Source of the DNA: a virus
Lineage: Duplodnaviria; Heunggongvirae; Uroviricota; Caudoviricetes
Length of the DNA: 8,155 nt
Virus record (IMG/VR): IMGVR_UViG_2534681649_000004
Direction: 5' to 3' (one strand)
The position numbers were made by a program, and so were the translations under genes. Shown here piece by piece: positions 17 through 5,832 of the stretch (position 1 is the first letter of the stretch; every line of letters begins with the position of its first letter). The notes beneath the pieces were generated by a model, which saw only the letters and a program-made list of their open reading frames with translations, was not told the origin of the DNA and searched no databases.

Positions 17-43
17 TGAGGTGTACTGGCAATAGCGGACACT
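17..43. repeat. IS600-like terminal inverted repeat (orfB-proximal end)
   Basis: TGAGGTGTACTGGCAATAGCGGACACT; pairs with the reverse complement of 1254..1280 (TGAGGTAGCCTGAGTTTAACGGACACT), sharing the TGAGGT terminus and the CGGACACT inner block. Confidence 0.55.
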
Positions 44-59
44 ACCATTTGTTCTTTTT

Positions 60-878
60 TTAAGCAGCCATCTGATGATATTTTTCCCTGAAGGCTGCCG
101 GGGAGATATTCCCCAGACGAGAGTGACGACGCTGACGATTGTAGAAAATCTCAATGTATTCCCGTATTACTGAGATGGCTTCATCCCGGTTATTAAAACG
201 ATAGTGGCTCAGGCTCTCATTTTTCAGCGTTCCCCAGAAGCTTTCCATCGGAGCGTTGTCGTAACAGTGACCTTTACGCGACATTGATGTTTTCAGACCA
301 GACTGCTCCTGTATGACCCGGTAATCGTATGCGCAGTACTGTGAACCTCGATCAGAGTGGTGGATTAGCCCGGCAGGTGGGCGCTGGCTCCTGAGCGCCA
401 TAAACAGGGCTTTACCTGTCAGCTCTTTTGTCATGCGCTCTCCCATGGCGTAGCCGACAATTTCGCACGTATAAACATCTTTGATGCCAGCGAGGTACAA
501 CCATCCCTCCTGTGTGGCAACATACGTCAGGTCCGCCACCCAGACCTGATTTGGTGCTGTAGGAGCGAACGTCTGGTTCAGCAGATTTGGCGCAACTGGC
601 AGATTGTGGTTCGGGTTCGTAGTCGCTCTGAACTTGCGTTTCTGCTTACAGCGTAGCCTTAGCTCCTTACGAAGACGTGCCAGTCGGTCACGACCAACGA
701 TGATGCCATTCTCTGCCAGCTCCGTCTGGAGCCGCCGGGTTCCATATGTTTCGCGAGTGCGGATATGTGCCACCTTAATCTCCAGTTTTAGCCGCTCATC
801 ACTTTGTTTTCTGTCTGAGGGTTCATGCTGTACCCAGTTGTAATAACCGCTCCTGGATACACCAAATACCTGACACAT
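60..878 (-). CDS. IS3-family transposase OrfB (DDE integrase catalytic domain), IS600-like; expressed in vivo as an OrfAB fusion by -1 frameshifting
   Basis: 272-aa ORF with DDE-type motifs (VWVADLTYV, HHSDRGSQY, CYDNAPMESFWGTLKNE). Sits in the -1 frame relative to orfA (codon phase checked by hand). Stop codon TAA at 60..62. Confidence 0.9.
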   Translation of the reverse strand: MCQVFGVSRSGYYNWVQHEPSDRKQSDERLKLEIKVAHIRTRETYGTRRLQTELAENGIIVGRDRLARLRKELRLRCKQKRKFRATTNPNHNLPVAPNLLNQTFAPTAPNQVWVADLTYVATQEGWLYLAGIKDVYTCEIVGYAMGERMTKELTGKALFMALRSQRPPAGLIHHSDRGSQYCAYDYRVIQEQSGLKTSMSRKGHCYDNAPMESFWGTLKNESLSHYRFNNRDEAISVIREYIEIFYNRQRRHSRLGNISPAAFREKYHQMAA

Positions 879-913
879 CGCTTCAATGGGAAATTGTTGT
901 CGCCATTGTTCGA

Positions 914-1216
914 TTAACGCGTATTTTTCAGCGACTCCTGTGCAAAATACGCTGTTGCTTTTTTTAATATATCTCGCTCAAGGCGAGCTTCATTTAACGC
1001 CTTACGCAGTTGCAGAATTTCAGATTCCAGTTCAGCCACCGTGCGGGAACCAGGAGTACCGAGCCCTTTTCTGGCGGCGGTAACCCATTGTCCTAAAGTG
1101 CCTTCAGGAAGGGATAATCGGGAAGCGCCTTCACTGATCGAAAGTTGATTTTCAAGAACCGTTCTGACAGTTTCGGCTTTGAACTCTTTAGAGTAACGTT
1201 GGTTTTTTCTGCTCAT
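914..1216 (-). CDS. IS3-family transposase OrfA (helix-turn-helix DNA-binding and leucine-zipper part), IS600-like
   Basis: 100-aa ORF MSRKNQRYSKEFKAETVRTVLENQLSISEGASRLSLPEGTLGQW..., typical IS3 OrfA. AGGAG Shine-Dalgarno about 7 nt upstream of the ATG at 1216. The ORF overlaps the slippery run. Confidence 0.9.
   Translation of the reverse strand: MSRKNQRYSKEFKAETVRTVLENQLSISEGASRLSLPEGTLGQWVTAARKGLGTPGSRTVAELESEILQLRKALNEARLERDILKKATAYFAQESLKNTR
959..965 (-). promoter_or_regulatory. Programmed -1 ribosomal frameshift slippery heptamer (A_AAA_AAA then G) between orfA and orfB
   Basis: T7 run on the plus strand at 959..965 is A7 on the coding strand, read TTA AAA AAA GCA (L K K A) in the orfA frame. 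A -1 slip enters the orfB frame (phase confirmed). Analogous to the A AAA AAG motif of IS911/IS3. Confidence 0.55.
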
Positions 1217-1253
1217 TATTAGCTCCTTCTGATGCCATTCTATTTCAGGAAGG

Positions 1254-1280
1254 AGTGTCCGTTAAACTCAGGCTACCTCA
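1254..1280. repeat. IS600-like terminal inverted repeat (orfA-proximal end)
   Basis: Reverse complement TGAGGTAGCCTGAGTTTAACGGACACT matches 17..43 at 19/27 positions; element ends in ...CA as expected for the IS3 family. Confidence 0.55.
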
Positions 1281-1456
1281 GTGTGCCAGAGGGGCGTATG
1301 TATCTGTCCAGAATCAGTGAGGCCATCAGTTTGTCTGCTGGTGAAGTGGCCCACCGGTTAATCGTCCCTTCATCGGATATTGACCTGGGGGAGACCGAGC
1401 TTCCGGTGCTCGGCGAGATCACCTGGCAGGCTTATGACCCGGCAAGGAGTAAATAA
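1281..1456 (+). pseudogene. 3' fragment of a phage baseplate J-like (Mu gp47/P2 gpJ-like) gene truncated by the IS600-like insertion
   Basis: Frame open from the IS boundary with no start codon (VPEGRMYLSRISEAISLSAGEVAHRLIVPSSDIDLGETELPVLGEITWQAYDPARSK*). Its stop overlaps the next gene's ATG (TAATG at 1454..1458), implying translational coupling in a baseplate operon. Identity is inferred from synteny only. Confidence 0.45.
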
Positions 1457-2046
1457 TGGATTCGTTACAGGATGATTATACAAAGCTGCTGTACGGACTG
1501 ATGCAGCCGGGGCCTGCATGGTCAGATACCGACGGTGTACTTGACGGTCTGGCACCATCGCTTGTGCGTGTTCACCAGCGGGCTGATGAACTGGTGATTG
1601 AAATCGATCCCGGTCAGTCCACAGAGCTGATTGAACGTTATGAAGAATTGTATGGTTTACCTGATTCCTGTTCCCCTGTCGGAACCCAGACATTACGCCA
1701 GCGTCAGCAACGTCTTGAAGCAAAAGCCAATGTGGCTGGTGGCATAAATGAGCAGTTCTTCCTGGATCAGCTTGAGGCGCTGGGATATACCGGCGTAACG
1801 ATCGAACAGTTCCAGCACCTGGATGCAAGCCCCGATCCGGAATGGGGAGATCGCTGGCGTTATTTCTGGCGTGTGACGTTGCCGGTGGATGCCGGTGCTC
1901 AGTGGCAGACATGCACGGACGCCTGCAACACACCGATCCGGACGTGGGGGGATACGGTTGCGGAGTGCGTGATTAATAAATTATGTCCGTCACACACCGT
2001 CGTTTTATTTTCCTATCCAGATGAGGATGAAGATGCACAGGATTGA
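1456..2046 (+). CDS. Phage tail/baseplate protein, YmfQ/Mu gp48-like (DUF2313-type)
   Basis: 196-aa ORF. Position between a baseplate J-like gene and the tail fibre gene matches Mu (47-48-S-U) and e14 (ymfP-ymfQ-stf-tfa) order. Family assignment from memory; start overlaps the upstream stop. Confidence 0.75.
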   Translation: MDSLQDDYTKLLYGLMQPGPAWSDTDGVLDGLAPSLVRVHQRADELVIEIDPGQSTELIERYEELYGLPDSCSPVGTQTLRQRQQRLEAKANVAGGINEQFFLDQLEALGYTGVTIEQFQHLDASPDPEWGDRWRYFWRVTLPVDAGAQWQTCTDACNTPIRTWGDTVAECVINKLCPSHTVVLFSYPDEDEDAQD

Positions 2047-3240
2047 TACGCTGACTGCGGTAAAAGATAAGTTTGGTCCGGGTAAGAACGGATTTACTGA
2101 CGGAAATCTTCGCACAGGACGTCTTGCTACCTGGCTGAACAGTGCCATGTGGAATGCCATTCAGGAGGAAATCTGTGGTGTCATTGAGAAGGCCGGGATA
2201 GAACTGAATAAAGAAGAACACGACCAGCTATATAAGGCTATATTATTGCTGGTGGGCGGTGCAATTAACGAAGAGGCATTGCTGATAAAAAATAACCTTT
2301 CGGATGTGGAAGACAGGGATGAGGCTGTTGAAAACCTCGGATTAAAACCCACGGTGGATAAGGCAAAAAATGCCGTTCAGCGTGATGGCGACACCATGAC
2401 CGGAGAGCTGAAAATCCGTGGTGTTAATGCGCTGAGGATTTTCAACGAAGCTTTTGGCCTGATTTTTCGTCGTTCGGAAGAGTGCCTGCACCTTATTCCC
2501 ACCAGTGAAGGTCAGGGGGAAAATGGCGATATTGGTCCCCTGCGCCCGTTCACCATTAATCTGCGGACGGGTGAAATATCCATGTCGCATAAAGTGTCTG
2601 TTGGCGGTGGTTCGCAGGTCAATGGTGCGCTGGGTATCGGCGTTCAGAACGCCCTGGGGGGAATTCAATTGCTTTCGGGGATAACGATACAGGTATAAAA
2701 CAAAACGGCGACGGCATTCTGGATGTTTATGCGAATGGACAGCATGTATTTCGTTTCCAGAATGGTGTGGCGATAGCGTTAAAAAATATTCAGGCCGGAA
2801 ATGCTAAAAAATTCACGTTATCCAGCGCCAACAACTCCACGAAAAATGCAGCGTTTTATTTGTGGGGTAATCCATCCAGGCCTGTTGTTGCAGAGCTTGG
2901 TGATGATTCCGGCTGGCATTTCTACAGCCAGAGAAATACCGATGGTAGTATCACATTCGCTGTAAACGGACAGGTAATTCCGTTAAATTACGGAAACTTC
3001 GATGCCCGCTATAAACATCGAACTGAGGGGGTACAGGATGTGCGGTATGGTTATGAAATGTATTACAACCCTGGCAGCAACACCGTTTCATGGACGTTTC
3101 GCTCACCTTCGGGACACGGGTTGTCAGGGATATCGATATCGGATACCGGCCGTAACTCAGCGGATAACGTCAACGGTGTGTATTACCGACCGCTGCAAAA
3201 ACTGATTAATGGCATCTGGTATAACGTAGCGAGTATTTAA
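2033..3240 (+). pseudogene. Tail fibre gene (Mu S / e14 Stf type) split by a 1-nt frame offset in a G6 tract; N-terminal segment 2033..2698, C-terminal segment from about 2662 to 3240
   Basis: N-terminal frame (MHRIDTLTAVKDKF...VQNALGG, likely start ATG 2033 after GAGGA at 2023..2027; the track's 2021 start is in the same frame) stops at 2696..2698. The other frame is open from 2593 and encodes NSIAFGDNDTGIKQNGDGILDVYANGQHVFRFQNGVAIALKNIQAGN...RPLQKLINGIWYNVASI, the conserved C-terminal block of lambda Stf/T4 gp37-type fibres. The two join seamlessly at the G run 2656..2661 if one more nucleotide is present. Confidence 0.75.
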
Positions 3241-3242
3241 CA

Positions 3243-3788
3243 ATGTTGCATTTAAAAAATATTACGGCAGGTAATCCGAAAACCGCGGAACAATATCAGC
3301 TGACAAAACAGTATGATGTCACCTGGCTTTTTTCGGAAGACGGCAAAAACTGGTATGAAGAACAGAAGAACTTTGCCAGTGACACCATAAAAATGGTTTA
3401 CACCGGAGACGGGCGCGTGGTGTGGGTCGGTAAGGATGTGACAGGCATTGAACCCCGTAACGCCAGTGTTATTGAAGTTCCTGATATTACCGCCAACCGC
3501 CGCATTACCGCGCCGGGTTACTGGTTTTACCGCAATGATGAATTTGTCTTTGACTACAGACTCAAAGCGGAAGATGAGCGTGATGCCCTTCTGGCTCAGG
3601 TCAGTGCCCGGACAGGGGAATGGGAAGAAGACCTGCTGCTGGGGCTAATCAGCGACGAAGACCGGGAAAAACTGAAAGCGTACCGTATTTACGCGAAATC
3701 GCTGCAGGCGATGGATTTCAGCGCCATCACTGATAAATCCTCATACAACGCCATTGAATGGCCCGTCTCTCCGGAAGGTTCTTCCTGA
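3243..3788 (+). CDS. Tail fibre assembly protein (Tfa / Mu U / P2 G family chaperone)
   Basis: 181-aa ORF starting MLHLKNITAGNPKTAEQYQLTKQYDVTWLFSEDGKNWYEEQKNF, the characteristic Tfa N-terminus. Starts 2 nt after the fibre gene stop. Confidence 0.85.
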   Translation: MLHLKNITAGNPKTAEQYQLTKQYDVTWLFSEDGKNWYEEQKNFASDTIKMVYTGDGRVVWVGKDVTGIEPRNASVIEVPDITANRRITAPGYWFYRNDEFVFDYRLKAEDERDALLAQVSARTGEWEEDLLLGLISDEDREKLKAYRIYAKSLQAMDFSAITDKSSYNAIEWPVSPEGSS

Positions 3789-3811
3789 TTTAATTTATCG
3801 CGAGAAAAACT

Positions 3812-5080
3812 ATGTCTGTAGTGATATCAGGTGCGCTGACTGATGGCGCAGGCATCCCCATGTCCGGATGCCAGATTATTCTGAAATCCCGTGTAAACAC
3901 CTCAGAAGTGGTGATGCGTACCAGGGCTGATGTAGTGACCGGAAATAACGGTGAATATTCGTTTGAGGCACAGGTCGGAAAATATTGCGTGTATCTGAAA
4001 CGGGACTGGCGCGACGAGTACTGTGTTGGCGACATTGCTGTATACGACGACTCAAAGCCCGGCACGCTGAATGACTTTCTGACTGCCCCCGATGAAGGCG
4101 ACCTGAAGCCGGATGTCGTCAAACGCTTTGAGGAAATGGTGGCGCAGGCGCAGCAGAGCGCCGGGGCCGCAGCCGGAAACGCACAGCAGACGGCGCAGGA
4201 TGTGGCGGCAGCCGCAGGTTATGCCCGCGCAGCAGAACAGGCCAAAAATGACATTGATGCTGCGCTGACCGGCACTCTGAAAATGGCTAACCATCTGTCA
4301 GAAATCGCAGCAGCAGGCGAAAAGGCACAACAGAAGTCCCGGGATAATCTGGGGCTGAAAAGTGCGGCCACGATGGAAGCACAGAGCGACATTTACGACC
4401 GGACAAAAGGCCGTCTGGCGATACCCGGCGCATTCGGCTTTGGGTGTGCTTTTCTGCCTGAAGATGTTATCCGTTTTGACACTAAGAGTGATTTCCTGGC
4501 CTGGGTAAGGAATGCGCTGCCAGGTGAATATTCCGTTGCTGGCCCCTACGACATCATCATACCCGACACACGGTTTGAAGGGGTGCTCAGCATCCGGTGG
4601 ACTGATGCACGCCCTGAGACAACAGAACCGCGGTACAGAGCCAAATCCCTTACTTTTTACGGCATTAACGGCCCCATTTATCACACCCGCTACTGCTACT
4701 GGCCCATATCCAGACTGACTGGCTGGGTGAAAATAAATATAACCACAGAAGATATTATTTACAGAATCGTGGCGAGCTCTGTCCGCAACAGATGGGGAGA
4801 CCCTGACATTGGCGGGCTGATTATTGCTGCGTACCAGGGAGAAGCTGACGGTGATAAAGTCATCAGACTTGTCAGGGGGCAGTCATACAGAGGCTCACGA
4901 CTGGGACCGGTGGGGATTTCAGTGCCCAGTACTCCCACCGGAACGTATATAGCATCCCCACAATTTTTCATTACGGGATGTTCAGAGCATTCATTACCGG
5001 GGTCATATTGCGCCCTGTCCGGGGGGCCGGATGCACATGTCTCTGGCGCAATGCCCGGGCTTTTTATTCGCACATCGTGA
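3812..5080 (+). CDS. Second tail fibre protein: lambdoid side-tail-fibre-type N-terminal domain, Ala/Gln-rich linker, and a C-terminal domain I cannot place
   Basis: 422-aa ORF. N-terminus MSVVISGALTDGAGIPMSGCQIILKSRVNTSEVVMRT...VYDDSKPGTLNDFL resembles the prophage tail fibre N-terminal domain of StfR/lambda Stf (from memory), followed by AQAQQSAGAAAGNAQQTAQDVAAAAGYARAAEQAK and an NLGLK motif. The C-terminal roughly 230 aa are Cys- and aromatic-rich with no family I recognise. Confidence 0.75.
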   Translation: MSVVISGALTDGAGIPMSGCQIILKSRVNTSEVVMRTRADVVTGNNGEYSFEAQVGKYCVYLKRDWRDEYCVGDIAVYDDSKPGTLNDFLTAPDEGDLKPDVVKRFEEMVAQAQQSAGAAAGNAQQTAQDVAAAAGYARAAEQAKNDIDAALTGTLKMANHLSEIAAAGEKAQQKSRDNLGLKSAATMEAQSDIYDRTKGRLAIPGAFGFGCAFLPEDVIRFDTKSDFLAWVRNALPGEYSVAGPYDIIIPDTRFEGVLSIRWTDARPETTEPRYRAKSLTFYGINGPIYHTRYCYWPISRLTGWVKINITTEDIIYRIVASSVRNRWGDPDIGGLIIAAYQGEADGDKVIRLVRGQSYRGSRLGPVGISVPSTPTGTYIASPQFFITGCSEHSLPGSYCALSGGPDAHVSGAMPGLFIRTS

Positions 5081-5083
5081 GGA

Positions 5084-5653
5084 ATGCACCGTGGAAATTA
5101 AAAAATCATTAATCCCCGTTATACCGAAAGTGGCGCAGTAGACTGTGACGTTTTTTTTGACGACAGGGACCAGGCAGTCCCCTACACAGCCACCGCTGAT
5201 GATGTCGCTCCGACGGGTCAGCAAATCTGGCAGGAACTGCAAAGCGGCAAATGGGGTGAGATAGCCCCATTCACTGTGACACCAGAAATGCTGGAAGCGG
5301 CCAGAGAGGCCAGACGTCAGGAAATTGAAGCATGGCGCGCAGAACAGGAGGCGAAGCCGTTCACGTTTGAATGGAACGGTCGTATCTGGAATGCTGGTCC
5401 CGACTCACTGGGCCGCCTGTCCCCGGTAGTCATGCTGGCAAAATCTGTCACAGCACAAACACATATGGCGTGGAGCGATGCCGATAATCAGCAGGTGAAA
5501 CTGTCGATGCCGGAACTGGAAGAACTGGCGGCAGCAATGGTGCAGGCGCAGGTCGATCGCAACGATGAGATTTATCGCCGTCAGCGTGAAATGAAAGAGG
5601 AGCTGAGCGGTCTGGATGATTTGGCTTCAATTCGGGCGTTTGACGTTGAGTAA
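5084..5653 (+). pseudogene. Tail fibre assembly/chaperone-like gene (DUF4376-like C-terminus) with an in-frame TAA at codon 6; alternatively a shorter CDS from GTG 5276
   Basis: ATG 5084 follows GAGG (5079..5082) overlapping the upstream stop, reads MHRGN then TAA (5099..5101). The same frame then runs open for 184 codons to 5653 with no ATG/GTG/TTG before GTG 5276. C-terminal sequence (FEWNGRIWNAGPDSLGRLSPVVMLAKSV...KLSMPELEELAAAMVQAQVDRNDEIYRRQ) resembles phage tail-fibre chaperone domains, from memory. Confidence 0.5.
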
Positions 5654-5769
5654 TGAATAAGCCGCAACTGGCGGAATCACAGAAGACCGCTTTGCTTACC
5701 GAAGCGGAGTCTGTCATCCGGCCGCGGGGGCGTGCTGTCAGGCTGAACAGGGAAACGGATGAATCCGGG

Positions 5770-5796
5770 GAGGCCCGGGGGCGGGCCTCTGTTTTT
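5770..5796 (+). terminator. Rho-independent terminator between the convergent tail-fibre operon and ipaH
   Basis: GAGGCCCG (5770..5777), loop GGGG, CGGGCCTC (5782..5789), then TGTTTTT. An 8-bp GC-rich perfect stem with a T tract on the plus strand; the reverse strand has the same hairpin preceded by A's, so it may act partly in both directions. Confidence 0.55.
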
Positions 5797-5832
5797 CCGG
5801 AGTCAGTCCGGTCTGTGGTTTATGCGATGTGA

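Follow-up and report, generated by a model that had tools for sequence, protein, structure and literature searches.

A gene that appears to encode a tail fibre is divided between two reading frames in the 8,155-nt stretch of DNA analysed here (the window), and the frames meet at a short run of G residues. This raises the question of whether the locus holds one gene broken by the loss of a base, two genes that are normally separate, a sequencing error, or a site where slippage or recoding still yields the full-length protein. The run is six Gs long (G6) and lies exactly at positions 2656-2661, in the local sequence ...AACGCCCTGGGGGGAATTCAATTGC... (positions 2640-2670, GCGTTCAGAACGCCCTGGGGGGAATTCAATTG). 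The upstream frame, open from 2021 or 2033, terminates in ...VQNALGGIQLLSGITIQV followed by a stop at 2698. Shifted by one base, the downstream frame stays open from 2593 as far as 3240 and contains ...RPGGNSIAFGDNDTGIKQNGDGILDVY... and ...PGGNSIAFGDNDTGIKQNGDGILDVY.... Inserting one G in the run (G7) gives a continuous 402-aa protein containing ...VQNALGGNSIAFGDNDTG..., which bears out the description in the first-pass annotation of two frames that are both open across 2593-2698 and join only with one more G. The frame details given there were all confirmed, with the correction that relatives are annotated as starting at the ATG of 2033 (MHRIDT...) rather than at 2021. At the run itself, the codons CTG GGG GGG AAT, which encode a Gly-Gly pair, have become CTG GGG GGA ATT, and the upstream product is 221 aa long, made up of 210 native residues and 11 out-of-frame residues (IQLLSGITIQV) before the stop. 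For the tail-fibre gene, Pfam gave only a sub-threshold match to Gp34_trimer (20.2 bits versus a cut-off of 27) and an NCBIfam scan gave no match. Its identity as a tail fibre is based on the position of the gene, the annotation of its orthologues and the match to phage phiP27.

Table 1. Features annotated in the window around the divided tail-fibre gene, with the basis of each assignment
Feature	Coordinates	Strand	Basis
IS3-family insertion sequence, 1264 bp	17..1280	-	imperfect terminal inverted repeats 17-43 and 1254-1280; orfA 914-1216, orfB 60-878
Baseplate J/gp47 remnant, last ~50 codons	1281..1456	+	aligns to L001 from 3261, within its baseplate J gene (2354-3436); Baseplate_J_C fragment in relatives
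Mu gp48/YmfQ-family baseplate gene, intact	1456..2046	+	Pfam PF10076, E=4.8e-24; annotation in relatives
5' part of tail-fibre pseudogene	2033..2698	+	ORF; start annotation of orthologues; exact 221-aa protein in public Shigella records
G6 homopolymer, site of 1-nt deletion	2656..2661	+	G7 in closest intact orthologue; G8/G9/G10 in sister S. boydii lineage; GGGCGGA in many E. coli
3' part of tail-fibre pseudogene	2662..3240	+	192 codons and stop, distal half; colinear with residues 211-402 of intact orthologues
Tail-fibre assembly (chaperone) gene	3243..3788	+	Pfam Caudo_TAP, E=1.3e-25; annotation in relatives
Second tail-fibre-like gene (Prophage tail fibre N-terminal domain, phage_tail_N), 422 aa	3812..5080	+	Pfam PF08400, E=5.8e-63; annotation in relatives
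DUF4376 gene, frameshifted	~5031..5653	+	A run 5100-5105: A6 versus A7 in nearly all relatives
ipaH, intact, 547 aa (T3SS effector E3 ubiquitin ligase)	5833..7476	-	Pfam NEL, E=6e-77; NCBIfam IpaH_Shig, 563.9 bits versus cut-off 550

The window derives from the chromosome of a Shigella strain of the S. boydii Sb227-like lineage and covers the right-hand end of an ipaH-carrying prophage of the phiP27/Mu type (Table 1); the cargo gene ipaH assigns the locus to the Shigella/EIEC ipaH prophage islands. The whole prophage, as found in complete E. coli genomes, runs in the order DNA circularisation protein, baseplate P, V, gp46, J, YmfQ, fibre, Tfa, second fibre, DUF4376 and ipaH, and the succession J/gp47, gp48 (YmfQ), fibre and Tfa in the window is the same as in these intact prophages. 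The nearest sequenced phage is the Stx2e phage phiP27, with 92.7% identity over 72% of window positions 1281-3788, and this segment matches the baseplate, tail-fibre and tail-fibre-assembly genes of the phiP27 tail module and Mu-type baseplate genes. Unlike those modules, the remnant has only the last few genes left, a frameshifted fibre, and ipaH downstream. E. coli FDAARGOS_944 (L001) has an intact prophage, to which the homology of the window begins at 1281, inside baseplate J, and the genes found 5' of the IS3-family element in relatives are unrelated (hok/DUF968 or IS66/DUF4224), with no baseplate or tail genes among them. The prophage is defunct: 5' of the last ~50 codons of baseplate J nothing of it is left, the loss being due to the IS3-family element (which we take to have the length of IS600). 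Because the same IS junction is common to the lineage with G6 and to a sister S. boydii lineage with runs of eight, nine or ten Gs (G8, G9 and G10), the truncation must be older than the split between the two, and function was lost before the tract diversified. The stump leaves nothing with which to assemble a tail, so that a broken fibre would be without functional consequence.

Signs of relaxed selection surround the gene and include the IS truncation of baseplate J as well as frameshifts, deletions and IS1 insertions in its neighbours and in relatives. Lesions that vary by strain are the 1-nt deletion in DUF4376 of the window, 3943delA in CP000036.1 and IS1 insertions in the fibre gene. In the sister S. 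boydii lineage, a 352-aa product results from the absence of 197 bp (4072-4268) from the second fibre gene, and a sub-group of this lineage is missing a further 4 bp of the same gene (4719-4722).

Other differences between the window and related loci lie outside the divided gene. Compared to L001, the second fibre gene of the window has a small cluster of in-frame indels at 4544-4554. The DUF4376 A run is A6 in the window and one relative (L010), and A7 in L001 and all other Shigella loci that cover it; this second single-base homopolymer loss within 2.5 kb is nearly private, and could be either a genuine mutation of recent date or an assembly error. The ipaH gene of FDAARGOS_944 is annotated as 'frameshifted', its copy of the G4 run at window positions 7189-7192 (C4 in the sense of the gene) being one base shorter. 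Three loci of the G6 lineage (L005, L009 and L011) are near-identical to the window apart from a block of 20 substitutions confined to tfa (3286-3738), which by its sequence pattern looks like a recombination patch. The IS3-family copy has one right-hand junction, in baseplate J, and two alternative left-hand neighbourhoods that go with different Shigella lineages, hok/DUF968 or IS66/Rv2179c-like/DUF4224 (L004-L013 versus L019-L024), which indicates IS-mediated rearrangement after insertion.

At the position equivalent to the divided gene, three E. coli prophages (L001, L002 and L003) have a single CDS of 402 aa and 1209 nt. The closest intact copy of the gene, that of FDAARGOS_944, is 99.8% identical and has G7, within a prophage that is 99.4% identical to the window over 1281-7243. 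Base-level alignment of the two copies leaves two substitutions in 1.2 kb and one gap, which falls inside the G run, and the repaired 402-aa protein is identical to that of FDAARGOS_944 at 401/402 residues, the sole change being I395T. We looked for the deletion in 5,426 complete E. coli genomes with a probe of 67 nt; it was absent from all of the full-length matches (50/50), each of which spans 68 bases and none of which is at least 99% identical. Among the aligned intact E. coli alleles, 4/9 read CTG GGG GGG AAT (G7) and 5/9 read CTG GGC GGA AAC; with GGC GGA in five of nine, G7 is a synonymous variant specific to a lineage rather than a conserved feature. The proposal that a single tail-fibre gene has been split by a 1-nt offset is supported by these orthologues, all single 402-aa genes with G7 or GGGCGGA, and the comparison of tract length across relatives that the first-pass annotation had suggested places G7 or GGGCGGA in intact E. 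coli orthologues and a recurrent G6 in Shigella.

The G6 allele is not confined to the window. We found the exact 221-aa product indexed in 155 blocks of the protein collection and on 100 contigs in the cluster listing, and the exact 157-aa product of the downstream ORF listed on 55 contigs; these records sit under NCBI, ENA, UniRef and Logan accessions assigned to Shigella boydii (including Sb227), Shigella flexneri or MULTISPECIES Shigella. In the DNA, G6 was read in 10/10 loci, and because these were picked by exact protein match, which sets tract length by construction, the informative quantity is the number of independent assemblies rather than any frequency. The ten loci come from ten different assemblies, among them CP000036.1 (S. 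boydii Sb227, presumably a Sanger-sequenced genome from 2005) and several further complete chromosomes, and over 17-6197 their identity to the window is 99.5-99.95%. A search for the immediate intact ancestor, in the form of the repaired G7 protein with the I395 of this lineage, found no match among the ~15 billion proteins of the collection. The same truncated product and G6 DNA in at least 10 Shigella assemblies argue for a true inactivating mutation, one of the causes that had been offered. The event had also been called recent, which is correct on an evolutionary scale given the two substitutions that separate the gene from its intact relative, but many strains diverged only after the deletion arose, and this sequence is not alone in having it.

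Variation in the length of the run was first indicated by one cluster member with an extra Gly (403 aa), the DNA of which has G10 in five S. boydii draft assemblies. We predicted the product expected for each run length and looked it up as an exact match in the protein collection. The 217-aa product of G8 was found on 58 contigs (117 blocks), the 222-aa product of G9 on 32 contigs (57 blocks) and the 403-aa product of G10 on 5 contigs. G7 on the S. boydii backbone was found on only one long-read contig (L039), which has G-deletion noise and is unreliable. The collection gave no match to the products predicted for G5, G11 and G12 (as N-terminal fragments), for G4 on either of two backbones, for G13 on that of S. 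boydii or for G10 on that of L001. Tract lengths were confirmed in the DNA of 21 further loci. Within the sister S. boydii lineage, the 1387A haplotype occurs with G8 three times, G9 twice and G10 twice, the 1387A + 3595T haplotype with G8 three times and G9 twice, and the 2542T haplotype with G9 and G10 three times each. In total, 21 pairs of loci from this lineage have different tract lengths and 0 substitutions over 2.3-2.9 kb. Four long-read assemblies with many G-deletions (L007, L022, L023 and L039) were discounted, and the pattern is unchanged without them. The window's own lineage has G6 only, with no variation in the sample. Judging from these sequences, the run is a slippage hot spot that alters in length far faster than bases substitute. 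Such fast change is expected of runs of G8-G10 by replication slippage and does not need selection.

Two further observations concern G runs at this locus. A second G6 run, at 1946-1951 in the gp48/YmfQ gene, is G5 in the four discounted long-read assemblies, on differing backbones; this looks like long-read homopolymer error and not biology, and at least L022 and L023 have several other single-G deletions. In the contig L028 (Logan ERR15561420, locus 3501-4154), which ends just past the tract, a G8 allele, which is out of frame, lies 3' of a set of baseplate genes that appears complete (gpP, gp45, gp46 and full-length baseplate J). Based on this contig, the G run may be able to break the fibre in otherwise intact prophages too.

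We weighed four other explanations of the two-frame layout. It is next to impossible, in our assessment, that the upstream and downstream ORFs are normally separate genes. The cluster listing does give the Sb227 records ABB65621.1 and ABB65620.1 as two proteins, but one 402-aa CDS covers both parts colinearly in every intact relative, the opposite of what the first-pass annotation would have taken as refuting a split gene. A homopolymer error in sequencing or assembly, with a true run of G7 and an intact gene, would be in keeping with a lesion that is a 1-nt change of the undercall type, with the second such change in the window (A7 to A6 in DUF4376, common to only one relative), and with the clear G-deletion noise in some related long-read assemblies. 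Set against these are G6 and an identical truncated product in at least ten assemblies of differing dates and contig sizes (155 blocks) and the missing repaired G7/I395 protein. Recurrence of G6 across so many independent assemblies makes a sequencing error in the window very unlikely, and this cause, also among those originally offered, is effectively excluded. Programmed -1 ribosomal frameshifting or transcriptional slippage at G_GGG_GGA, by which a full-length fibre would be restored from G6, appears extremely improbable, even though the zero-frame reading CT G GGG GGA (2654-2662, in the frame of 2033) fits X_XXY_YYZ and a -1 slip would give exactly the ancestral ...ALGGNSIAF... sequence. 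This heptamer is in the correct phase, like those of programmed -1 sites in IS3-family transposases and dnaX, and given the formal match a trace of full-length protein may be possible. Unlike those sites, the run has no stimulatory structure that we could find, the 98 nt downstream (2663-2760) having a minimum free energy of -16.1 kcal/mol, no better than shuffled sequences (z = +0.58); the arrangement is also unconserved, and the ancestral gene lies in one frame. Orthologues with a single ORF require no frameshift, the two-frame layout is limited to the decaying lineage, and the sister alleles G8 and G9 are in different frames, showing that the frame relation is unconserved.

The remaining explanation starts from the slipped-strand tract that had been proposed as a cause of phase variation. 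As a mutational property this stands, since G8, G9 and G10 occur on otherwise identical backbones in sister S. boydii; as functional phase variation it finds no support, given the truncated prophage and the unconserved tract. We consider it decidedly unlikely that the gene is a contingency locus in which poly-G slippage switches a still-useful fibre-like protein ON (G7 and G10) or OFF (G6, G8 and G9). The poly-G at 2656-2661 is indeed a frame-shifting simple-sequence repeat inside a coding region. In the sister lineage, its length varies above background mutation (the 21 pairs), so that strains otherwise identical in sequence differ in tract length, and both in-frame and out-of-frame lengths occur; poly-G in receptor-binding protein genes is also discussed for Campylobacter phages. 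A functional product and a tract kept in orthologues, which such a locus would also have, are not indicated by the sequences. The IS-truncated prophage is a stump without tail tube, sheath and most of the baseplate, decay is seen in adjoining genes as well, and GGC GGA in many intact orthologues (5/9 alleles) argues that the tract is not kept by selection. Out-of-frame alleles prevail (155 blocks for G6, 117 for G8 and 57 for G9, versus 5 contigs for G10), and only G6 occurs in the window's lineage. The locus is like the contingency loci of Neisseria, Haemophilus, Campylobacter and Bordetella (for example PMC1891110) in having an intragenic poly-G that changes by 1-nt steps among near-identical strains and thereby sets the reading frame right or wrong. 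Unlike at those loci, the host element here is defunct, the tract is interrupted in many orthologues and the length differences observed are between strains. For a true contingency tract, the fibre would have to be co-opted, perhaps as a binding protein that is secreted or displayed on the surface, with slippage within populations between G6 and G10 toggling it ON and OFF at high frequency, which we regard as very improbable; if it were so, Shigella would be keeping the cluster of fibre, chaperone and second fibre beside ipaH because of that co-option. The length polymorphism is unlikely to be functional, and we infer that an unselected homopolymer has undergone neutral microevolution here and does not act as a regulatory switch.

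Two other candidates were rejected. A cloning artefact could have been suspected from the EcoRI site (GAATTC) and overlapping MfeI site (CAATTG) right after the run (2662-2672), but GAATTCAATTG is also found in natural E. coli prophages. For an invertible tail-fibre segment of the Mu G, P1 C or e14 P type, every fibre and tfa gene lies on the + strand and there is no invertase; aside from the IS transposase, no recombinase was detected among the ORFs of at least 95 aa or in a Pfam scan of the nine largest ORFs.

The divided gene is thus very probably a lineage-fixed frameshift pseudogene in a defunct ipaH prophage remnant, formed by neutral slippage that removed one G from G7. It has an uninterrupted orthologue, an indel that is not a multiple of three, a heritable allele and relaxed selection nearby. 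From sequence comparison, we regard the structure of the gene, the distribution of its alleles and the order of events, with IS insertion before diversification of the tract, as established. Replication slippage is most likely the cause of the G loss, in agreement with the presence of G8, G9 and G10 on identical backbones. According to the history we propose, an intact ipaH-carrying prophage of the phiP27/Mu type would have had G7 in its fibre gene and would then have been truncated by an IS3-family element in a Shigella ancestor. With selection gone, slippage would have produced G6 in the Sb227-like lineage and G8, G9 and G10 in the other, and G6 would have been inherited thereafter. Translation of the G6 allele is expected to stop after the 210 native and 11 foreign residues, leaving the distal 192 residues unmade.

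This pseudogene resembles the frameshift pseudogenes of Shigella prophage remnants and chromosomal ipaH islands, where ipaH lies beside phage tail genes, IS elements and disrupted ORFs. Nothing essential differs from the Shigella ipaH islands, and what is added here is a lesion in a G run that varies by lineage. Copies of ipaH are often flanked by prophages and pseudogenes, according to PMC9046306. A decayed gene in a Shigella prophage stump is of a kind already known from Shigella genome comparisons, and the polymorphism between G6 and G10 adds a minor new case of homopolymer microevolution, a phenomenon that is well known (compare PMC1891110).

The finding carries little biological weight, and its consequence for annotation is that both ORFs should be merged into one frameshifted pseudogene. 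The run at 2656-2661, which ranges from G6 to G10 and differs among otherwise identical S. boydii sequences, provides a natural length marker with possible uses in fine-scale typing and in checking the homopolymer accuracy of assemblies. It also illustrates how a synonymous change from GGC GGA to GGG GGG makes a fragile site in a gene, one that breaks after selection is lifted.
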